Origin: Candidatus Hodarchaeota archaeon
Lineage (GTDB): Archaea; Asgardarchaeota; Lokiarchaeia; Sigyniarchaeales; SOKP01
Assembly: GCA_048887225.1 (NCBI GenBank)
Contig: JBHLJY010000007.1
Coordinates: 51,294 to 115,293, forward strand
Direction: 5' to 3'
DNA: 64,000 nucleotides
In this document: positions 52,034 to 61,427 of the stretch, piece after piece
Layout: every line of letters starts with the position of its first letter
Position numbering within the stretch: position 1 is the first letter of the stretch
Translations under genes and position numbers: made by a program
The notes under the pieces: generated by a model
Seen by the model: the letters and a program-made list of their open reading frames with translations, nothing else
Told to the model about the DNA's origin: nothing
Database searches by the model: none

Positions 52034-52930
52034 ATGAGCGAAAAGGTCACGATTTCTGGCGTTGAATTGAAGTTAACCGAGCCTGCTGAAGTTGATATGG
52101 CGTGGGTTGGTAATGAAGATATAATTAATGAATTAAAAGCGGCATGGATGGTTGTTGATGAGAAAGAGGATCTCCCACTAAATCCTAGAATATTAGGAAA
52201 ACCTGGAGTGGGAAAAACAACGCTTGCATATGCTACTGGTAAATTGTTAAATAAGTATGTTTATATATTTCAGTGTACAATGGACACCAGACCAGAGGAT
52301 CTTTTAATTAGCCCGGTTATTTCCTCTGATAATAAAATTGCTTATGTTGCTAGTTCGTTAGTGTCTGCTATGATTAAAGGAGGTGTATGTCTTTTGGACG
52401 AAGGGAATCGTATGAGCGAGAAAAGCTGGGCCTCTTTAGCTCCATTGATGGACAAGCGACGTTACGTGGACTCGATAATAGCAGGTATAAGAATTTATGC
52501 TCATCCCGATTTTCGCTTATGTGTTACTATGAATAGCGACAGTAGCACCTATGAAGTCCCAGAATATATTCAATCTCGTCTACAACCTAAAGTTTATATC
52601 GATTTTCCCAATAGAGTTGACGAATTAAAAATTTTAAAATATAATTTACCGTTTGCTTCAGATAAAATTTTGGAATATTGTGTAGATTTTCTCCAGAATG
52701 CACATATTCACGATGAGCCATTTACGGTAAGAGAAGGCATAAATATTGTAAGGTATTACGTTAAAACTCGGTCTTTAAACGGAAAAGATAAAATTACTTT
52801 AAATAAAAAAGAATTCAAAAGTTCTATTGCACACATTTTAGAAGAAAGTTCGAAAAGATATTGTCCCGATGAATATGAGGAATTTTTAGAAAAGCAAAAA
52901 GAAGAATTTTCAGATCGTCTCCTATTTTAA
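52034..52930 (+). CDS. AAA+ ATPase, MoxR / AAA_5 (dynein-related) type
   Basis: 298 aa. Walker A GKPGVGKTT, Walker B VCLLDEGNR, and a single AAA module with a short lid. Confidence 0.8.
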   Translation: MSEKVTISGVELKLTEPAEVDMAWVGNEDIINELKAAWMVVDEKEDLPLNPRILGKPGVGKTTLAYATGKLLNKYVYIFQCTMDTRPEDLLISPVISSDNKIAYVASSLVSAMIKGGVCLLDEGNRMSEKSWASLAPLMDKRRYVDSIIAGIRIYAHPDFRLCVTMNSDSSTYEVPEYIQSRLQPKVYIDFPNRVDELKILKYNLPFASDKILEYCVDFLQNAHIHDEPFTVREGINIVRYYVKTRSLNGKDKITLNKKEFKSSIAHILEESSKRYCPDEYEEFLEKQKEEFSDRLLF

Positions 52931-53027
52931 ATAAATTTTTAATATTTTATAATCATTGGACTAAAAAAGATTTAAAAATTAAATTACAAAATATAACACA
53001 ACTAAAAATAAGACGTGATAATAAGAA

Positions 53028-53780
53028 ATGTCGAATGAAAATGTAAATAGGGAATTGTCGAATTTTGGGAGAAGAATGAAAATATTAGCGATAATGACGC
53101 TTGTAGGTTTCATATTGGGCATAGTAGGATGGTTTATAAATGTAACAATTATTAGTATTATAATAAGTATAATTATTATAATCTATTTCCTATTATTGCT
53201 AGGGAATATTAAGAGAGCTGGTAGAACACTTAATAATAAAGATTTACTATCATTTTCTCCTAGATTTTTATGGGGGACTATTATAAGATTCATTGGGAAC
53301 CAATTATTTGGAATTGGAATTTTATTCATATTGATACTTATATATGGTGGAGAACCTCTCGCAACAGTGATCCCTTTTATAATAACGGCACTTATAGGTG
53401 TAGCCCTTATAATCATAGGATCGATATTAAGATTTATGGCATGGGGAGGTTTAGCTACTTTTTTTGAAACAAATTATCAACTATTTCCCCCAAATATCAG
53501 TGGTAATGGAAAAACGGGAGCTAAAATGTGTAAAATTGCAACTATTCTTGACATGACAATATTTCTTTCATCTATTGGAGATATTTTAAGGATAATAGGA
53601 TATTTCAAATTGGCTTCCTTAAAAGATTTAATAGGAGCTCCAGTTCAGCCAGTACCTCAGCCTTTAGCGCCAATGCCTACTCCTGTAGAAGCTCCATCAG
53701 CGAATTTTTGTCCAGAATGTGGAAGTGCTATTACTCAAGGAGCAAGATTTTGTCCAAGTTGTGGAAGTGAAATACTTTAA
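53028..53780 (+). CDS. membrane protein with C-terminal Pro-rich linker and double zinc ribbon
   Basis: 250 aa with about 5 TM segments, then PVQPVPQPLAPMPTPVEAP, then FCPECGSAITQGARFCPSCGSEI. Confidence 0.65.
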   Translation: MSNENVNRELSNFGRRMKILAIMTLVGFILGIVGWFINVTIISIIISIIIIIYFLLLLGNIKRAGRTLNNKDLLSFSPRFLWGTIIRFIGNQLFGIGILFILILIYGGEPLATVIPFIITALIGVALIIIGSILRFMAWGGLATFFETNYQLFPPNISGNGKTGAKMCKIATILDMTIFLSSIGDILRIIGYFKLASLKDLIGAPVQPVPQPLAPMPTPVEAPSANFCPECGSAITQGARFCPSCGSEIL

Positions 53781-53898
53781 TCTTTTTTTTTTATTTTAAT
53801 TTTAATTTAAACATTTTTATTATTGTAATAACTCTAAAACATGATAACTTAATCTTTGAGCTTAGAAATATAATATAAACCTATAGGAACAATTCTGA

Positions 53899-55893
53899 AT
53901 GAATAAAACTCCATATCTTAAGTATAAAAACATTTACGTCATTCCATCTTTTCATTCGAGAATAGAATTTTCTAAATTAGTTCGTACAGCATATTTTTTG
54001 GTATTTCCAGATGTAATCGCAGTTGAATTACCAGACAATATAAGAAACGAAGTAATAGAAGGAATAGAAAGATTACCGTTTTTATCTTTAATTGCGTACA
54101 CAGATACACTCAGTCCAAAAAAAATGAATTTTGTACCTATTGATCCAGGAGATTCAATTATAGAAGGGATAAAGATCGGATTAGAATTTGGTGTTCCAAT
54201 TGAGTTTATTGATTTATCTATAACAGATTATTTGCCAACCAGCTTTAGACTACCAGATGATCATTCTTTAAATGAAATAGGACTGCCCTTATTTTACCAA
54301 AAAATTTCAAAATATTTTAGAAAAGAATTTATGACCAAAAAAATAGAATTAAGAGATAAATTAAGTTTAGAGGATTATTTAAAAAACCAAGAAAATCGAG
54401 AGCAAAAATATGACTTTTTAGAGAAGGATGTACTTCGCGAGAGATATATGGCATCGCATCTTTTAAAAATGATGCCTTTATATCATAGAATCTTGTTTAT
54501 TGTAGGTATGGCTCATTGGGAAAATATTAAATATTATTTAGAGAATCCCGAAAAAATTCAGGATGTAGAATTAGATTTAATCCCTTATAAATTTGTTAAA
54601 ATCTATAATGTGAAAAATAAGGACGCTCGATTCCTTTTAAGAGAATTACCTTATAATACCTACAAATGGTTAAAATTCAAAGAAAAATATTCAAAGGAAG
54701 TCTTAGAAGAACTTGAATCTCCAAATGAATTATATACGATTCTTGAATCTTATAATAAAATTGATCATATTAGAAAGATATTTTTAAAAGCGAAATATGA
54801 TTACGAGGAAGAATTTAAAGAATTTGTTGATCTTCACAAATTAAAAACATTGTTTCAATATTCAAGGAATTTATCATTAGCAGAACAAAGATTATTGCCT
54901 AACCTTGCACATTTATTAATTTCTTCTAAAAATATCGTTGATGACGATTACGCTTGGAAAGTATTAAAAAAAGCAACTAAATATCCTTATGATGATGAAA
55001 GCAATAAATATGAAACGATGAAATTAAGCTTAGAAGGGGGATACGATCCTAGTGGACGATATATAAAATTGAGAAGACGCCATCCTTATGACTATGGTAA
55101 AGAGCGAGAGGTTCCTCTAAACAAACGACCTGAAGAAGAATATGAAGGACAATGGAGAGATGAATGGGAAGAAGGTAAATGGAATACCGTTTCGTGGCCT
55201 CCAGAGGATATAATTGAGGAGGATTATTTCGCTTATATTCGTAAGAGAGCGCTTAAGAACCTTAAAAATCAGCGAATTAAAATAGAAGAATTCAAATCGA
55301 GTCTAATGGATGGCATCGCAATTAAAGAAACAATTAGAAATTGGGCTTTTAAGAAAAAAATTTATGTGCGAAACGAACAACAAATTCAAGGAAAAATTGA
55401 TACTCTTGTTGTCATTTTCGATCAGGATGATGAAGATGTGGAGAAATACCCTTATAGATTAACCTGGTGGGCGGAACATGATAGAGAAAGCGATATGGCC
55501 TTCTACTCAACACTTCCAGGAGACTATTTAATTGGACCAGGAATCTCTCATGTAGAGATAGGAGGGATTTTATCTATTTTTCCTCCTCCGAGATTAAAAG
55601 AGGTCTTTAGATCGTATATGGATTATGAGTATCGCGATACTCTTAATAAAGCTGAAAGGCTTTTGAAGGCAGCCATCCTATATTCGAAAGAAAGATATAT
55701 AATATATGTTGGGGAAGAAACACCAAGGAAATACTTCTATTCTATGGCAGGAGTTAAAAATAGAGAAATTTTATATATCCCATTAGATTATTTTAGTCAA
55801 GAATCACTCAAAACCATTAAACATATTCATATACTTGCCGGAAAAGACAAAAGGAAAATTGCTCATAACTATATCTTTTTAGACACACATTAA
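53899..55893 (+). CDS. large protein with TraB/GumN-like N-terminal domain (DUF5682-like, tentative)
   Basis: 664 aa. The N-terminal IPSFHSRIEFSKLVRTAYFLVFPDVIAVELPDN and the later RERYMASHLL...RILFIVGMAHWENI resemble TraB-family blocks (GTAHVS..PD.VaVEL / ERD..MA...vVGaGH). The remaining ~450 aa are unrecognised. Confidence 0.5.
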   Translation: MNKTPYLKYKNIYVIPSFHSRIEFSKLVRTAYFLVFPDVIAVELPDNIRNEVIEGIERLPFLSLIAYTDTLSPKKMNFVPIDPGDSIIEGIKIGLEFGVPIEFIDLSITDYLPTSFRLPDDHSLNEIGLPLFYQKISKYFRKEFMTKKIELRDKLSLEDYLKNQENREQKYDFLEKDVLRERYMASHLLKMMPLYHRILFIVGMAHWENIKYYLENPEKIQDVELDLIPYKFVKIYNVKNKDARFLLRELPYNTYKWLKFKEKYSKEVLEELESPNELYTILESYNKIDHIRKIFLKAKYDYEEEFKEFVDLHKLKTLFQYSRNLSLAEQRLLPNLAHLLISSKNIVDDDYAWKVLKKATKYPYDDESNKYETMKLSLEGGYDPSGRYIKLRRRHPYDYGKEREVPLNKRPEEEYEGQWRDEWEEGKWNTVSWPPEDIIEEDYFAYIRKRALKNLKNQRIKIEEFKSSLMDGIAIKETIRNWAFKKKIYVRNEQQIQGKIDTLVVIFDQDDEDVEKYPYRLTWWAEHDRESDMAFYSTLPGDYLIGPGISHVEIGGILSIFPPPRLKEVFRSYMDYEYRDTLNKAERLLKAAILYSKERYIIYVGEETPRKYFYSMAGVKNREILYIPLDYFSQESLKTIKHIHILAGKDKRKIAHNYIFLDTH

Positions 55894-55959
55894 ACAGACT
55901 AAAAACAGTCTTTTTTCAAAAGAAAAAATATAGTTGATAAAAAATTTAAAAAAATAAAA

Positions 55960-57675
55960 TTACTTTTCAATAGACTCTACATATTCTGAAATTTTCTCAG
56001 TTATTATTTCTGGTTTCTCGGCTTCGGCACCCTTTTTCACATGAGCAAGTTCCAAGCGCTCCCTATGCAAGGTATTCATAGCACAAAAGGGCACTTCCAA
56101 AACTTTGGTTGGGTCATCTGGGTCAATTATTCCATAGTGTACAAGACAGGACTTTATCCTATTAAGGTCAAAATTATAAGCGTCTTGAAAATGCATTGCA
56201 CTAACAAGCATATTGCCAGTAAGTAAAAAGTTGCCAGCTGTTCTCATGTTTGGAGCAATTACTAGTTTGCCTAATGATTGAAAAAATTTGCTATCTAACA
56301 CTTTTTTAATTTTTACATATTTAAACATACCAGCAAAGAAATAGGCCTTCATCATTTGCCTATAGCCAATATTGGTCATATCATCGATAAATTTTCCAAC
56401 TGTAGCTGCAAGGCTACCATAATCCGCTAAATTAATGTTTCCTAAAAGACCGGTAGGTTTTGGCACTTCCCTCGATTGGACCATGTCGTAGACTTTGTTA
56501 GACCATCTAAGTAATCCTTCTACATCTACATAATGTTCAATGGGTTCCCACTCATTATTTTTGTTTATGATCCCTATAGTGGCAAAACCACAGTCGTGAT
56601 GGCTTGTAGTTGACCAATTCGGAGCATCATCAAACCATGCTAATAATCCCGTGAATTTGGCAGTTGTTGCGAGAGGATAAAATTTTGTAATCATATTATT
56701 TGTTGCTTTATTAATATCTACTTTTAGGTCGGAAGTTGTGTATCTTAAATCCATTAATTCTTCGAAACTTATACGACCACATAGAGAAACTGGTTGGAAA
56801 ACCACACCCCCACATATGTCTTTATATTCTTTGGCAAATTCCATAATTGGGCCAACTTGACTGTCGTTTACACCTTTAGCTATAACAGGGACTAACATAA
56901 GAGTAATTCCGCCTACTTTTCGAATATTATCAACAGCTCTCTTTTTGATGGGCCAAAGATTAACTCCTCTTACTTTTTTCCAAACCTCAGGAGCGTCGGT
57001 TGCATCAAACTGTAAATATATAGTATCGAGTCCAGCATCTTTCATTTCTTGAAGATATTCAATTGATTTAGCAATTCTTATCCCATTTGTTGAGACCATA
57101 ATATCAAGAAATCCCATCTCTTTACCTACTCGAATCATTTCTGGGAGATCGTCTCGAAGCGTTGGTTCTCCGCCAGCAAATTGAAGCAAAACTGCTGGAG
57201 TTGGTTTCATAGATCTAAAATGTTCCATAATTTGTATGATATCGTCGAAACTAGGCTCAACAACATAACCTTTCGCACTCGCATTCGCGAAACAGATAGG
57301 GCATGCCAGATTACACCTATTAGTGATATCTATTAAACATATACAAGGAGCACTTAGATGATTCTTACAAATGCCACAATCATAGGGACATCCTTTCGCA
57401 TCTTCCCTAATTCCTGAAGATACTTCACAAGGTTTCGTTGAAATTTTATCGCCTTTTGTCGAACCGATTTCTTCTGTAAATTTCATGCTCCACTTGTAAT
57501 CGTCAGCATTGATGGAGATTTTATCCTTGAACTCGCCATGATCTTCACAAGTTTTTCGAAGCATTACATAATTATTTGTAGGATCTACATAAAATTGCGC
57601 TGGTATTTGCGTTAAGCATTCTGGGCACAAAGACATAGTTTCCCGTACAATCTCATACTCTGTCATAAAAATCAA
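55960..57675 (-). CDS. radical SAM enzyme, COG1964-type (tetraether lipid synthase Tes/GDGT-MAS-like candidate)
   Basis: Contains the N-terminal zinc-ribbon-like CPEC...CEDHG, the Cys-rich CPYDCGICKNH...PC, and the radical SAM CNLACPIC (Cx3Cx2C). Length is about 570 aa. The likely true start is the ATG at 57666 (MTEYEIV). Confidence 0.8.
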   Translation of the reverse strand: MIFMTEYEIVRETMSLCPECLTQIPAQFYVDPTNNYVMLRKTCEDHGEFKDKISINADDYKWSMKFTEEIGSTKGDKISTKPCEVSSGIREDAKGCPYDCGICKNHLSAPCICLIDITNRCNLACPICFANASAKGYVVEPSFDDIIQIMEHFRSMKPTPAVLLQFAGGEPTLRDDLPEMIRVGKEMGFLDIMVSTNGIRIAKSIEYLQEMKDAGLDTIYLQFDATDAPEVWKKVRGVNLWPIKKRAVDNIRKVGGITLMLVPVIAKGVNDSQVGPIMEFAKEYKDICGGVVFQPVSLCGRISFEELMDLRYTTSDLKVDINKATNNMITKFYPLATTAKFTGLLAWFDDAPNWSTTSHHDCGFATIGIINKNNEWEPIEHYVDVEGLLRWSNKVYDMVQSREVPKPTGLLGNINLADYGSLAATVGKFIDDMTNIGYRQMMKAYFFAGMFKYVKIKKVLDSKFFQSLGKLVIAPNMRTAGNFLLTGNMLVSAMHFQDAYNFDLNRIKSCLVHYGIIDPDDPTKVLEVPFCAMNTLHRERLELAHVKKGAEAEKPEIITEKISEYVESIEK

Positions 57676-57861
57676 ATTTTCATTTATTAACTATTTATTT
57701 TGTATAAATAATTATTTGATTAAATAAAATAACTTGTTATAAAAATGTTTTAAGAGTAAAAATAATCTTAAGAATATTATTTTTAAATATCCATTTAAGG
57801 AATCATCATACGAAATTATTACATAGAGAAATCCCTAAACTCTTTTTTTATTTATTATTTA

Positions 57862-57875
57862 ATCTTGATCAAGAT
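57862..57875. promoter_or_regulatory. perfect 14 bp palindrome next to the candidate RNA
   Basis: The sequence atcttgatcaagat is its own reverse complement. It lies 15 nt from the terminal helix of the GC-rich element, inside a divergent intergenic region. Confidence 0.25.
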
Positions 57876-57889
57876 ATTAAAGAAAAAGA

Positions 57890-58008
57890 GACTCCTGCCA
57901 GCCAGACCTAAAGAGAAGGTCAGAAATTAAATAGGGGGAGGAGGGCAAAATCATAGCGTACTAAAATACGCTAACCAAAAGACAAAAATCCAGGGTGCGG
58001 CAGGAGTC
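57890..58008. ncRNA. candidate structured small RNA of unknown family (strand uncertain; + slightly favoured)
   Basis: A GC-rich island lies in a 565 bp AT-rich intergenic region. The perfect 10 bp terminal helix pairs gactcctgcc (57890..57899) with ggcaggagtc (57999..58008). Internal hairpins are gacc/ggtc (57905..57921) and tagcgta/tacgcta (57954..57973). There is a purine tract, agggggaggaggg. A T7 run follows directly on + (58010..58016), and tcttttt follows on -. Confidence 0.45.
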
Positions 58009-58240
58009 ATTTTTTTAAAGTTTTTATATAGGTTAGATTTTACTAATTGTATTTTGAGTTGTAAATGAAATTTAAATTTTTATCTTAAGATAATATATAC
58101 TTTCCATTATATAAAATAATTATAATAAAAATTTAACAGTAATATTTAAATTAATAGAGTGGTATTTTACAAAATTGTTAAATGCTTCTTTGGCTATTTG
58201 CTGATTGGAAAATTAAAATAATATAATTATATAGGCTTTT

Positions 58241-58636
58241 ATGGTAGACAAGAAAGAGGAAAAAGAAAAAAGCCCCTTAGGAAGGATTGAGCCCGAATTT
58301 AAATTCGATGTTGGCACAGTTGTATTCTTTTTTATTGGATCAATTATTTCTTGGTTGAATATGTTATTGATTTTTGCGTTCATGGAAGTTTGGGCTTTTT
58401 TATCTATTATTCTTATTTCAAGCATTCCAGGAATAATTGTTGCTTATAAAAACAGGTATTGGGGTTATGGATTTATGTTTGGATATTCTATGGCAGGAAT
58501 TCCATTTATGATTTTTGTTGATTTGTTTATAGGAGGCTATGTTTTTGCAACAGCATTATTTATTTTTATAATCATGTGGCTGGTGTTTTGGAAAACGTGG
58601 AGATCTCTTTCGGCAATTAAAAAAGAAAGCGAATAA
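58241..58636 (+). CDS. small 4-TM membrane protein
   Basis: 131 aa with a charged N-terminus and then four hydrophobic segments. It lacks CrcB motifs. Confidence 0.55.
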   Translation: MVDKKEEKEKSPLGRIEPEFKFDVGTVVFFFIGSIISWLNMLLIFAFMEVWAFLSIILISSIPGIIVAYKNRYWGYGFMFGYSMAGIPFMIFVDLFIGGYVFATALFIFIIMWLVFWKTWRSLSAIKKESE

Positions 58637-58651
58637 AATTGAGTACTAAAT

Positions 58652-58870
58652 TTATAAGAAGATCAGTTTCTTGCATTTCACGCATTTTTTTCCTTCTTCC
58701 TTTGCTTTTTTCGCACACTCTAAACAATATTTTGTTTTACAAGCTGTGCATTGATAAATATCTCCTTTCAAATCTCCTTTATGGAATAGACAAAAATTCT
58801 CTCCAATTTTCTCGTATTTAGGAGGTAATACTGGAGGAGGGGGTATTTCTTTATTACTCATAATTACCAA
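58652..58870 (-). CDS. small zinc-finger protein with 8 Cys/His ligands and N-terminal poly-proline stretch
   Basis: 72 aa. It starts with IPPPPVLPP. The ligand pattern is C-x2-H-x11-C-x2-C-x4-C-x2-C-x10-C-x2-C, which is two-zinc, RING/B-box-like spacing. An ATG at 58861 is an alternative start. Confidence 0.5.
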   Translation of the reverse strand: MVIMSNKEIPPPPVLPPKYEKIGENFCLFHKGDLKGDIYQCTACKTKYCLECAKKAKEEGKKCVKCKKLIFL

Positions 58871-58882
58871 ATTTAATTATTT

Positions 58883-59359
58883 CTAACCTTTTTTATTATA
58901 AATTGGAATATCTTCGATATCGACTTCAATCACCTTCATGATTGCCTTGAATTTTTCTTTAATAGACAGAATTTTAGTAGCGTCTAAATCTTCTGCAATA
59001 ATATAAGTCTCATAAAAACACTTTTCCATTTCGTAGCAGAGACCGGTTGTATGTAAAATATCTTTACTTAAATCTAGTTCTCTTAACACGCTAGATATCC
59101 CTTTCACTAGATCTGGTGAAAATTCAGTTAATTTTATTAGAACTTTTTTAATATTACTTGTTTTCGTAGGAAAACAGCTTGTTTTAACCACATCTTCTCG
59201 AGAAATGAAAATCAATAAATAATAAGGAGTTTCTGAAATTTCTTTTAAAACTTCTTTAGGAAAAATAGAATTCCTTAATTGGTCTCTATTTATTATCAAA
59301 CCTAAAGAAATTCTATTCTTTTCTTTGCTTTTATCGCTTTCAATTCCCATATTAATCAA
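58883..59359 (-). CDS. hypothetical protein (possibly ACT-like C-terminal half)
   Basis: 158 aa, same strand and 12 nt upstream of the zinc-finger gene. No firm motif. Confidence 0.45.
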   Translation of the reverse strand: MINMGIESDKSKEKNRISLGLIINRDQLRNSIFPKEVLKEISETPYYLLIFISREDVVKTSCFPTKTSNIKKVLIKLTEFSPDLVKGISSVLRELDLSKDILHTTGLCYEMEKCFYETYIIAEDLDATKILSIKEKFKAIMKVIEVDIEDIPIYNKKG

Positions 59360-59576
59360 TACTTATTATAATGTATTAAACAAATTTGTTGAATAAAATA
59401 TTTAATTTTTATAATTTTTTAATTGTTACTTATTTTTTTATTGAAGAAAAAAACATCATATCACCGAGATAACGTATGTATTTTTTATAAAAACTGTTTT
59501 TTTTTCTTTTAAAGAAAGAGATTTTACAAAGAAAAGCTAAAAAAATAACTATATTAATATCTAAGATCGATAGATT

Positions 59577-60080
59577 ATGTCTTTAAGATGGAAAAACGAT
59601 TATATGGAAAACTTTGGATTTAAACATAAACAATTAGAATTCAACGATAATAGATTTCACGCGATTTATTTCGTAGATAGTGTGACAGGTGCTTTACTTT
59701 TAAGTAATAGATATTCAGATAACTCTCCCGGAATATCTAAAAATTACGACGATTTAATTGGCAGTTTTTTGAACGCAATAAACATGTTTATTAGAGAAAT
59801 TAAAAGCAATAAAGACGAAGAAATTCAAGAAATAAATTTTAAAAAAACGCGAATCATTTATGAGAAGAGAGGGCGATTAATTTGTATCGCAATTTCTAAA
59901 AAAACCAATCTCCAAACTGAAAGACAGATCATTCACGAAATTATGAAAGATTTTTATTATAGATTTGAACATGAGATAAATGAATTCAAAGGTTTCATTG
60001 AACCTAAAATTTTAGATTATAAAACCCGATTAAAATACCTAAATTTGAACTCCTTAGTCTCGTTCAATAAAAATATTTAA
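59577..60080 (+). CDS. small longin/roadblock-like protein (inferred fold), function unknown
   Basis: 167 aa. Pattern FHAIYFVDS / ALLLSNRY / DDLIGSFLNAINMFIREI / IQEINFKK / TRIIYEKRG / LICIAISKK / TERQIIHEIMKDFYYRFEHEI fits beta-beta-alpha-beta-beta-beta-alpha. Confidence 0.45.
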   Translation: MSLRWKNDYMENFGFKHKQLEFNDNRFHAIYFVDSVTGALLLSNRYSDNSPGISKNYDDLIGSFLNAINMFIREIKSNKDEEIQEINFKKTRIIYEKRGRLICIAISKKTNLQTERQIIHEIMKDFYYRFEHEINEFKGFIEPKILDYKTRLKYLNLNSLVSFNKNI

Positions 60081-60089
60081 AAAAAAGCG

Positions 60090-61427
60090 TTAACTCTTTC
60101 TGTGTTTTTTTAGTTGATCTAACCATTTTTCTAAGTCAGTTTTAGTTGTTTCGCGTTCATCTGGTTCACGTCCGATTTTTTTTTGTTCAATTTTTTCAAT
60201 CTCGGATTCGAGTTTTTCACCTATTGCTTTTACATCAGCTTTCAAACTTTGCCGTTTTTCGTCCAATTCACGTTGTTTATCTATTCTAAAGGCTTTTTCC
60301 CCAACTGAATGAGTTATAGCTTTAGCTGAAGTTTCCATATCAGGTTTTAACTCTTTAAGTTCAGTGTCCCTCTCTCTTTTTTTGTCAATCATGAATGCTT
60401 TTTCACTGACAGACTTACTTATGGCTTCAGCAGTGCTCTCTATTCTTGGTTTCAATTCTTTAAGTTGAATATCTTTTTCTCTTTTCTTTTCAATCATGTG
60501 AGCTTTTTCTTCGATTGATTTACTTATTGCTTTGGCAGATTTTTCCATGTCCGGTTTTAATACTTTGCGTAGAGTATCTCGTTCTTTTTGTTTCTCGATC
60601 ATAAAGGCTTTTTCGCCGATAATTTTGTTAATCGCCTCGGCAGATTTCTCAATTTCAGGTTTTAATTTCTTAAGTTGAATACTTTTTTCCCTCTGTTTTT
60701 CGATCATAAAAGCTTTTTCTCCGACAGATTTTCTAATTGCTTCAGCGGTACTTACTATTCTGGGCTTCAATTCTTTAAGTTGAATGTCTTTGTCTCTTTT
60801 CTTTTCAATCATATAAGCTTTTTCTTCGATTGATTTACTTATTGCTTCGGCAGATTTTTCCATGTCCGATTTTAATTCCTTGCGTTGAGCATTTCTCTCT
60901 TTCTTCTTTTCAATCATAAAGGCTTTTTTGTCGACAGATTTGCTAATTGCTTCCATTGATTTTGCTATGTTTGGTTTCAAACCTTTAAGTTGAGCGTCTC
61001 TTTCCCTCTGTTTTTCGATCATAAAAGCTTTTTCGCTGACAGATTTACTTATAGCCTCAGCGGTGCTTTCTATTCTGGGTTTCAATTCTTTAAGTTGAAT
61101 TTCTTTTTCTCTTTTTTTGTCGATCATATATGCTTTTTCTCCAATTGATTTGCTGATTATCTCGGCAGATTTTTCAATGTCTGGTTTTATTCCTATACGT
61201 TGAAGATCCTTTTCTCTTTTTTTATCAATCATAAAAGCTTTTTCGCCAATAGATTTTTCTATTTGTGTTTTACTTTCTTCGAAAGATTTCTTTCTTCGTT
61301 CTTCAGTTTTTTTTAAATATTTTTCTCTCTCCTCCTTTTCTTGTTTGAATAGATCTTCAATAATTTTTTTCTGTTTTTTGACGTCTTCTGGATCTAATGG
61401 TTTTTCATTTTCTTCCATAAAATTCAC
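60090..61427 (-). CDS. repeat protein: ten tandem 35-aa Lys/Glu-rich helical repeats
   Basis: 445 aa. The motif (E/S)KA(F/Y)MI(D/E)K recurs at residues 61, 96, 131, 166, 201, 236, 271, 306, 341 and 376, an exact period of 35. Confidence 0.75.
   Translation of the reverse strand: MNFMEENEKPLDPEDVKKQKKIIEDLFKQEKEEREKYLKKTEERRKKSFEESKTQIEKSIGEKAFMIDKKREKDLQRIGIKPDIEKSAEIISKSIGEKAYMIDKKREKEIQLKELKPRIESTAEAISKSVSEKAFMIEKQRERDAQLKGLKPNIAKSMEAISKSVDKKAFMIEKKKERNAQRKELKSDMEKSAEAISKSIEEKAYMIEKKRDKDIQLKELKPRIVSTAEAIRKSVGEKAFMIEKQREKSIQLKKLKPEIEKSAEAINKIIGEKAFMIEKQKERDTLRKVLKPDMEKSAKAISKSIEEKAHMIEKKREKDIQLKELKPRIESTAEAISKSVSEKAFMIDKKRERDTELKELKPDMETSAKAITHSVGEKAFRIDKQRELDEKRQSLKADVKAIGEKLESEIEKIEQKKIGREPDERETTKTDLEKWLDQLKKHRKS
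60228..61280 (-). repeat. coding tandem repeat, 105 bp unit, organised in 315 bp (3-unit) super-repeats
   Basis: DNA segments about 315 bp apart are near-identical. One example is ttcaatcat(a/g)t(a/g)agctttttcttcgattgatttacttattgctt(c/t)ggcagatttttccatgtcc at about 60490 and about 60800. Protein units 2-3-4, 5-6-7 and 8-9-10 correspond. Confidence 0.85.

Follow-up and report, generated by a model that had tools for sequence, protein, structure and literature searches.

What is encoded by a short G+C-rich island standing between two protein genes in an AT-rich Asgard archaeal genome? The island lies at about positions 57886 to 58010 of a 64,000-nucleotide stretch (the window) of contig JBHLJY010000007.1 from the Candidatus Hodarchaeota archaeon assembly GCA_048887225.1. 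It occupies a 565-bp intergenic spacer bounded on one side by a radical SAM gene on the minus strand (Pfam domains Radical_SAM and Zn_ribbon_HMPTM in the product) and on the other by a plus-strand open reading frame (ORF) for a 131-amino acid (aa) membrane protein with no Pfam match. A model given only the letters and their ORFs (the sequence-only reading) had described this spacer correctly and proposed a structured RNA in it, either a stand-alone small RNA or a cis-regulatory leader. Comparison with relatives indicates that the element very probably belongs to a real family of stand-alone structured RNAs, multi-copy and previously undescribed, in the Lokiarchaeia (Promethearchaeota). Asgard archaea are the closest known prokaryotic relatives of eukaryotes, and few non-coding RNAs have been described in them.

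Conservation and distribution of the element

The G+C content of the element is 47.1%, against 15.4% and 15.9% in its flanks and 30.2% in the whole window, and the helix ends, hairpins, purine tract, T7 run, TCTTTTT, AT-rich box and palindrome picked out by the sequence-only reading were all present where it had placed them. Fold energies are -39.3 kcal/mol on the plus strand and -41.1 kcal/mol on the minus strand (z scores of -4.8 and -6.2, respectively, against dinucleotide shuffles), and none of 200 dinucleotide shuffles equalled the energy of the element. Contigs encoding homologues of the radical SAM protein, whose relatives come from metagenome-assembled genomes (MAGs) of Lokiarchaeota/Promethearchaeota and include a 100% identical protein from a MAG labelled “Candidatus Hodarchaeota archaeon”, were gathered and searched with the element by BLASTN, which found it at 95%, 86%, and 84% identity in three of them. 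In alignment A1, conservation begins and ends within a few bases of the helix ends and the AT-rich flanks diverge; the hairpins retain their stems but differ in the length and sequence of their loops.

Two larger collections were made. For the first, a pattern taken from two invariant stretches was searched in GTDB species-representative genomes and matched 110 loci, the named records being mostly MAGs labelled Promethearchaeota or Promethearchaeia, with a minority labelled Hermod-, Hod-, Odin-, or Thorarchaeota, some labelled “uncultured archaeon” and one bacterium. For the second, which is independent of the purine tract discussed below, the 19-mer CCAAAAGACAAAAATCCAG alone served as the query against metagenomes and retrieved at least 120 contigs with further family members of varied architecture. 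A covariance model (R1) derived from 14 window-type sequences gives family members scores of 75-155 bits, and the window copy 149.7 bits over 57888-58010. Some MAGs carry three to five copies, five being the maximum, and the identity between copies of one genome is 79-97%. The element is one paralogue of a large family and no isolated oddity, a point that the sequence-only reading had missed together with the hallmark block at 57974-57995 described below.

The family appears to be restricted to Lokiarchaeia. It had no matches among IMG/VR viral contigs, and a full-text literature search with the invariant sequences and for Asgard non-coding RNA work returned nothing relevant; it is new both as a family and in its architecture. 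When the locus was sought in cultured Lokiarchaeia by way of the membrane-protein family, the best 120 of 300 matches included no multi-Mb contig. The RNA family is abundant and strongly supported by covariation, with copies numbering in the hundreds in public data and several paralogues to a genome, and its covariance model provides a new gene class for the annotation of these MAGs.

Public taxonomic labels are inconsistent among L095, L021, L109, L111, and the source of the window: records labelled Odin-, Thor-, Hermod-, and Hodarchaeota share near-identical loci with Promethearchaeota MAGs, and L095 (DATKTW010000179.1), whose record belongs to a “Candidatus Nanopelagicaceae bacterium” MAG, probably represents a Lokiarchaeial contig binned in error. 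Two loci hold a second R1 match a few kb from the main copy, one of 46 bits cut by the locus end (L017:7912-8000, plus strand) and one of 28 bits and only 81 nt (L065:6923-7003, minus strand), which suggests local duplication and decay of paralogues.

A three-way junction with compensatory substitutions

The features of the element are as follows, in window coordinates.

57886 to 58010, minus strand (likely): small RNA gene, conserved block; ends approximate
57890 to 57902, minus strand: helix P1, arm on the radical SAM side (3' arm on the minus strand), pairing with 57997-58008
57997 to 58008, minus strand: the other arm of P1 (5' arm on the minus strand), with the same covariation support
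57905 to 57921, minus strand: hairpin P2, 4-bp stem (57905-57908/57918-57921) with a variable 9-nt loop; 4/4 pairs changed on both sides
57933 to 57946, minus strand: junction tract, AGGGGGAGGAGGGC on the plus strand and GCCCUCCUCCCCCU on the minus-strand RNA; variable among more distant members
57955 to 57972, minus strand: hairpin P3, six conserved pairs (57955-57960/57967-57972) with a varying loop; 5/6 pairs changed on both sides
57974 to 57995, minus strand: family hallmark, single-stranded block of 21-22 nt between P1 and P3, ACCAAAAGACAAAAAUCCAGGG on the plus strand and CCCUGGAUUUUUGUCUUUUGGU on the minus-strand RNA

The fold is a three-way junction, in which an irregular long closing helix (P1) and the hairpins P2 and P3 are joined by long single-stranded segments, and RNAalifold recovers the three helices independently. 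In the alignment of the genome set (105 rows), 95.7% of cells hold standard pairs, against 29-38% with partners slid by one to three columns; 20 of the 22 pairs have changed on both sides, and none of 500 shuffles reaches any observed measure. The metagenome set, collected with a different pattern, gives 93.5% paired cells against 28-46% in slid columns, with 21 of 22 pairs changed on both sides and 284 double-change cells. Such compensatory substitutions beyond the controls, which we take as the criterion for a structured non-coding RNA, identify the element as one. With covariation in all helices and sharp borders of conservation, the structured RNA gene proposed from the letters is borne out.

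In the window, P1 comprises 10 perfect base pairs (57890-57899/57999-58008), a bulged A at 57900 and two further pairs (57901-57902). All 12 pairs vary across the family and 11 have changed on both sides (GACUCC/GGAGUC exchanging with GCCUCC/GGAGGC; also AACUCCUGGUAUC/GAUACCGGAGUU), the bulge shifts position between subfamilies, and P1 of L004 has a compensatory inserted base pair. The stem of P2, GACC/GGTC in the window, exchanges as RNA between GACC/GGUC, GACGC/GCGUC, GAUGC/GCAUC, and AACC/GGUU. For P3, the perfect 7-bp hairpin noted earlier (TAGCGTA-CTAAAA-TACGCTA, 57954-57960/57967-57973) is present in the window, but only six of its seven pairs are conserved; its versions include AGCGUA/UACGCU, AGUGUA/UACACU, AGUGUGU/ACACACU, and AGUGCGC/GCGCACU.

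Several members elaborate on this plan. The orthologous loci L023 (2858-3010) and L048, from two MAGs, have an extra outer helix of 9-10 bp around P1 (AUGGCAACAAAA/UUUUGUUGCCAU) with a 7-nt one-sided bulge; bulge-helix-bulge geometry is absent and there is no tRNA nearby. Extra hairpins in L020, L037, L079, L119, L148, and L150 stand in the junction after the invariant block or replace P2, sites that evidently tolerate expansion. Beyond the plus-strand 3' arm of P1, L095 and L089 carry a short tandem duplication of the helix end and tail (GGAGTCATTTTAGGAGTCATTTTAGG and GGAGTCATTTTAGGTGTCATTTTAGG, respectively), which could reflect slippage or a processing or termination site.

An invariant block and a drifting junction tract

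The bases of the hallmark block lying outside the search patterns never vary (104 of 104 sequences). A few RNAs of other layout carry the block as well, such as L137, in which an 11-bp helix surrounds about 50 nt, and its retention across divergent architectures implies a conserved molecular partner. The 1.6 Mb of sequence gathered contained no rRNA with which the block could be compared for complementarity.

The purine tract AGGGGGAGGAGGG (57933-57945, plus strand) seemed invariant in the first collection, an artefact of a search pattern that demanded it. In the collection that did not, it is exact in only 21 of 102 copies, drifts to forms such as AUAGGAUAAGUAGGGC, AUAGGGUAAGAAUGGC, and AUAGGGAGAGGGC, and is missing in L157 and L170. 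A two-state switch, suggested by the sequence-only reading from the resemblance of this tract to the 3' arm of the terminal helix, is not upheld, as the tract drifts or disappears in the wider family while P1 stays.

A zinc-ribbon gene of 69-94 aa (motif FCLFHKG; minus strand, region 58652-58870 of the window; L001:2806-3015) contains AUUUUUGUCUUUUCC, 13 nt of which are identical to the invariant block on the same strand and complementary to its plus-strand version. At least 12 loci keep the identity, since it lies in coding sequence. It was set aside as probably a coincidence, about 0.7 such matches being expected by chance in the DNA gathered, on a base-composition estimate.

Long-range pairing with the flank

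In part of the family, the AU-rich end of the junction tract (AAAUAAAAUAGGG on the plus strand) finds its complement in a segment of 10-14 nt located 24-65 nt outside P1, on the side of the membrane-protein gene. Flank segment and tract co-vary across subfamilies as AAAUAAAAUAGGG, AAACAAAAUAGGG, AAAUACAAUAG, AUCAAAAUAGGG, and AAAUUAAA. Flank and junction share a substring of at least 10 nt in 41 of 94 loci. Four controls yielded 1-3 of 94, and setting each flank against the junction from a different subfamily yielded 6 of 94; the metagenome set gave 15 of 74 loci against 0. The share of relatives with this pairing is about 20-45%. It follows that the RNA of these members, or its precursor, reaches past P1 and can form a pseudoknot-like helix with the junction. 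As for a general promoter motif, the candidate AAAATAGGG was rejected, with 67 occurrences inside elements, 22 in the specific flank and 27 elsewhere in 860 kb.

Strand of the RNA

The RNA is likely a minus-strand transcript, predicted to run from about 58010 to 57885, starting near AUGAC and ending in a C/U-rich tail. Distinct members were folded allowing Watson-Crick pairs alone, and 1x1 mismatches standing isolated between pairs were collected. Read on the plus strand, these were C.A or A.C in 11 cases, G.U in 2, and other in 9 for the genome set, and 13, 5, and 10, respectively, for the metagenome set, which sums to 24 C.A-type against 7 G.U-type mismatches. Since a G-C transition yields either type equally, the C.A excess on the plus strand points to wobble pairs on the minus strand; a true plus-strand RNA should show the reverse. 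Any transcription-linked mutation bias would point the same way as these counts. Covariation intermediates are likewise A.C on the plus strand and G.U on the minus strand, namely AACC/GGUC in L022, which sits between GACC/GGUC and AACC/GGUU, and GCGCG/ACACAC in L074 and L077, between the UA and CG versions. The minus sense also gives the more stable helix in 51 of 63 distinct versions of P1 and in 60 of 73 of P2. The minus-sense tail after P1 consists of C1-3 followed by U3-7 across the family, and the L023/L048 subtype, read in the minus sense, has T6 and T8 runs after its outer helix and TATTTAAAT 21 nt before it.

Two flanking features of the window copy were read from the sequence.

57879 to 57889, minus strand: U-rich tail, or candidate terminator, of the minus-strand RNA, UCUCUUUUUCUU
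58010 to 58030, minus strand: A-rich stretch and TATATAAAAA box, 5' of the minus-strand RNA; T7 run on the plus strand

The box itself (58030-58021, minus strand) lies 13-22 nt upstream of the element and P1 and is a promoter candidate only.

It is unlikely that the same stand-alone RNA is instead made from the plus strand, from about 57886 to 58016, with purine-rich junctions and with the T7 run at 58010-58016 doubling as its terminator. In such an RNA the G tract GGGGGAGGAGGG could act as a two-tier G-quadruplex or bind the CCUCC 3' end of 16S rRNA, and the A-rich ACCAAAAGACAAAAAUCCAGGG block would form a tertiary core. Several observations favor this arrangement and count against a minus-strand transcript. 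Runs of at least four T occur within 15 nt after P1 in 68 of 94 loci in the plus sense and 47 of 94 in the minus sense, and runs of at least five T in 37 of 94 and 14 of 94, respectively. In the plus sense, 8-mers made of A and T alone are most frequent 28-32 nt ahead of P1. The TATA-like box of the window, at 13-22 nt in the minus sense, is too near P1, as archaeal TATA boxes usually lie about 25 nt from the start. Unpaired parts of the plus strand have the strong A-over-T skew usual for folded RNAs, A- and G-rich junctions such as it would have are typical of tertiary-folded RNAs, and the outer pair is G.U in GUGAC...GUCAU.

The T-run comparison is confounded, however, in that the plus-sense flank is T-rich across all 70 nt and T runs are to be expected there; the wider family does not keep the G tract, and the mismatches, the intermediates and the helix energies favor the minus strand. 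Of the two bodies of evidence, the structural one is the stronger. T-run and TATA statistics were rejected as strand evidence, since they conflict with the mismatches and are confounded by flank composition, as were the energy of the long-range duplex (the G-rich plus strand was stronger with control flanks as well), wobble counts in the long-range helix (too few to decide) and a scan for bacterial-type promoters and terminators (uninformative for an archaeon). The sequence-only reading had described the element mainly on the plus strand, with its purine tract and T7 terminator, whereas the minus strand, there a mere alternative, is the one that fits the mismatch types.

A stand-alone gene

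The element is a stand-alone RNA gene, neither a leader nor a riboswitch, because diverged paralogues adjoin unrelated genes in either orientation. Members of the canonical subtype lie between radical SAM and membrane-protein genes in 69-71 of 112 loci, but in an unbiased sample the radical SAM gene adjoins in 11 of 89 loci and the membrane-protein gene in 12 of 84. Other neighbors are functionally unrelated (DUF2299, a DpnII-like nuclease, a CCG-domain protein, and a metallo-beta-lactamase); near the element no further protein family is overrepresented, and the neighbors share no common Pfam theme. With the RNA read in the minus sense, its 3' neighbor is co-oriented at 60 loci and converges at 31 (of 91); read in the plus sense, the split is 40 versus 36. 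Where a gene is co-oriented, its median distance is about 355 nt. In L003, where an inserted Na/Ca exchanger gene separates the element from the radical SAM gene, the element itself has not changed.

These observations make it very unlikely that the element is a cis-regulatory, riboswitch-like leader of the radical SAM gene (minus strand, about 215 nt upstream) or of the membrane-protein gene (plus strand, about 225 nt upstream). Beyond the canonical arrangement, a leader would draw support from the three-way junction, whose invariant junction nucleotides and co-varying, alternative long-range pairing resemble the aptamer-plus-platform layout of three-way-junction and pseudoknot riboswitches. 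Unlike such aptamers, however, the family has no consistent downstream gene class and no Rfam riboswitch match, and its P1 is a very stable closing helix of 12-14 bp rather than a marginal switching helix. A lineage with a 73% identical radical SAM protein has no copy of the element at the equivalent site. Of the two possibilities left by the sequence-only reading, the stand-alone RNA is thus supported, with its unrelated neighbors and with about a third of the 3' genes converging, and the leader is not.

Known RNA classes, mobile elements and small ORFs

Against the 4227 models of Rfam 15 at the gathering threshold, neither the whole window nor 18 other family loci gave a match. A permissive scan returned only NEAT1_2 at 17.4 bits (threshold 60) and NsiR1 and two small nucleolar RNA models at 13-15 bits (thresholds 39-50). 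ARAGORN found no tRNA or transfer-messenger RNA in the window or in seven family loci. With respect to C/D box RNAs, the C box RUGAUGA is absent from both strands of the window copy, which has one CUGA, the D box sequence (minus strand); the CUGA 3' of P3 in the main subtype becomes AUGA, CUCA, CUAA, or CUUA in other members. H/ACA RNAs are marked by a K-turn, a hairpin carrying a pseudouridylation pocket and an ACA box placed 3 nt before the 3' terminus; here the sole ACA of the plus strand falls within the invariant block, some 25 nt short of the 3' end, no ACA occurs on the minus strand and no Rfam H/ACA model matched. The earlier failure to recognize tRNA, 5S, C/D, H/ACA, SRP, or RNase P features agrees with these scans.

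HgcC, HgcE, HgcF, and HgcG (Rfam RF00062, RF00058, RF00057, RF00064) are reportedly GC-rich small RNAs of AT-rich archaea, attributed to work of Klein, Misulovin and Eddy in 2002. Like them, the element is a stand-alone structured RNA gene forming a G+C island in an AT-rich archaeal intergenic region; unlike them, it belongs to Lokiarchaeia and to a multi-copy family with an invariant 21-nt block, and there is no match in sequence or structure. Y RNAs and bacterial Y-like RNAs, the partners of Ro60 and Rsr, are comparable in their length of about 100-120 nt, long bulged terminal helix, pyrimidine-rich interior, U-rich 3' tail and paralogues. However, the Y_RNA models do not match and the conserved Ro-binding helix sequence is absent; a survey confined to family neighbors found no TROVE-domain gene.

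A DNA-level repeat is highly improbable. On this account the element would be similar to a miniature inverted-repeat transposable element (MITE) or a repetitive extragenic palindrome (REP), with terminal inverted repeats, spread by a transposase or RAYT, and its helices would be hairpins of single-stranded DNA. Multiple intergenic copies and terminal inverted repeats of 10-13 nt would fit, and the complementarity between flank and interior loosely recalls guide or end recognition in IS110 and IS605. However, copies within a genome are only 79-97% identical and differ by compensatory changes, the junctions are invariant across species, and one copy is orthologous and syntenic in many species. 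Genes for a transposase, TnpB, IscB, recombinase, or reverse transcriptase are not enriched in the vicinity, the flanks inspected show no target-site duplication, IMG/VR viral matches are lacking, and the mismatches are asymmetric between the strands.

A leaderless mini-gene, in which the AUG at the minus-strand 5' edge would open an ORF of 12-41 codons (MTPAAPWIFVFWLAYFSTL in the window), can be dismissed: although 109 of 167 family members start with ATG at the model edge and have short ORFs after it, 58 do not, the invariant block falls in all three frames relative to the ATG (59, 41, and 9 members), the peptides differ (PWIFVFW versus LDFCLLVV), and substitutions keep base pairs, not codons. 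The small ORF was accordingly rejected at the family level. In the window, the corresponding CAT on the plus strand (AUG on the minus strand) is at 58010-58012, and this conserved edge AUG may reflect the sequence around the transcription start.

Possible mode of action

We lean slightly toward a trans-acting RNA or ribonucleoprotein (RNP) scaffold, a model suggested by the conserved sequence and fold and stated here short of naming a partner. The minus-strand helices would act as a clamp displaying two U/C-rich single strands, CCCUGGAUUUUUGUCUUUUGG and CCCUCCUCCCCCU. The invariant CCCUGGAUUUUUGUCUUUUGGU would be the docking site of a conserved partner, and the C/U tract GCCCUCCUCCCCCUAUUU, which resembles an anti-Shine-Dalgarno sequence, would serve as a base-pairing end complementary to purine-rich, Shine-Dalgarno-like GGAGG. 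In many relatives the co-varying leader would pair with the AU-rich end of the tract and either mask the tract or organize a pseudoknot. If the C/U tract is the base-pairing end, its targets must differ between paralogues, since the tract is not conserved.

The specific partner and targets that we put forward are doubtful. The most plausible partner would be an Sm-like (SmAP/Lsm) ring, because the invariant block holds GAUUUUUGU followed by a stem-loop. On the minus strand, GAUUUUUGU is invariant across the family and P3 starts 8 nt downstream of it. It fits eight of the nine positions of the Sm-site nonamer AAUUUUUGA (RAU4-6GR), which is defined together with an adjacent 3' stem-loop (PMC6954390). 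Archaeal Sm-like proteins are reported to bind U-rich RNA (PMC3710371).

Several points tell against this model. The C/U tract is not conserved across the wider family. The match to the Sm site is imperfect, its ninth and last position being U where the consensus has a purine, and U-rich runs are common in a genome of 30% G+C. The window copy lacks evident long-range pairing (longest common substring 6), and its long-range duplex reaches only -6.0/-3.8 kcal/mol.

A bolder version, which we consider quite improbable, is an Asgard Sm-class RNP, in which paralogous RNAs with a small nuclear RNA (snRNA)-like Sm site and 3' stem-loop (GAUUUUUGUCU), near the U7 type, would be bound by SmAP/Lsm proteins and the pyrimidine arm would pair with purine-rich targets. 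The variant Sm site of U7 is AAUUUGUCUAG. As in the Sm-class snRNAs U1, U2, U4, U5, and U7, the minus strand has a single-stranded GAUUUUUGU(CU) between two helices with a stem-loop on its 3' side, and there are several paralogues per genome; like the 5' end of U7, the pyrimidine-rich single strand could pair with purine-rich targets. The arrangement recalls the “snRNP code”, in which an Sm site is combined with a 3' stem-loop (PMC6954390), and the resemblance is to be taken as a lead. Unlike Sm-class snRNAs, the family has U at the ninth position and has no Rfam snRNA match; to our knowledge, archaea have no spliceosome. If true, this version would make the family a prokaryotic counterpart, or even a relative, of the RNPs that gave rise to eukaryotic small nuclear RNPs.

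The pyrimidine tract also invites comparison with RsaE and RoxS, bacterial C-rich antisense small RNAs whose UCCC motifs pair with Shine-Dalgarno regions. Similar to these, the minus-strand RNA would be trans-encoded and present C/U-rich unpaired motifs (CCCU three or four times) on a stable scaffold; unlike them, it belongs to another domain of life, shows no homology and has no Shine-Dalgarno-like motif upstream of either gene flanking it in the window. Many archaeal mRNAs are leaderless. Should the partner prove to be an Sm-like ring, or the C/U arm target purine-rich mRNA or rRNA, RNA regulation and RNP biology of this lineage would be opened to experiment.

Minor features and neighboring genes

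Outside the element lies one further feature of the spacer.

57862 to 57875, no strand: 14-nt palindrome, ATCTTGATCAAGAT

The sequence-only reading had regarded it as flanking the element, but it is at chance level, the window holding 15 perfect 14-nt palindromes against 10.9 in shuffles, and it is not kept in L001, L003, L004, or L111.

A gene block conserved among Lokiarchaeial MAGs surrounds the RNA in the window (52034-61427) and in L001 and L003 to L005. It comprises an AAA_5 (MoxR-like) ATPase, a zinc-ribbon membrane protein, a 664-aa protein, the radical SAM protein (HMPTM-type), the RNA, the 131-aa membrane protein, a zinc-ribbon protein, a 158-aa protein, a longin-like protein, and a repeat protein. 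The last of these (445 aa; 60090-61427, minus strand) consists nearly throughout of about 11 tandem repeats of about 33 aa (…SIGEKAFMIEKQRExDxQLKELKPxIExSAEAIxKS…), is without annotation and is kept downstream of the RNA locus in 52 of 112 loci. The longin-like protein (167 aa; 59577-60080, plus strand) matches the first longin domain of FUZ/MON1/HPS1 weakly (E = 2.8e-4, below the Pfam cut-off), and its fold is of a eukaryote-signature-like kind typical of Asgard genomes.

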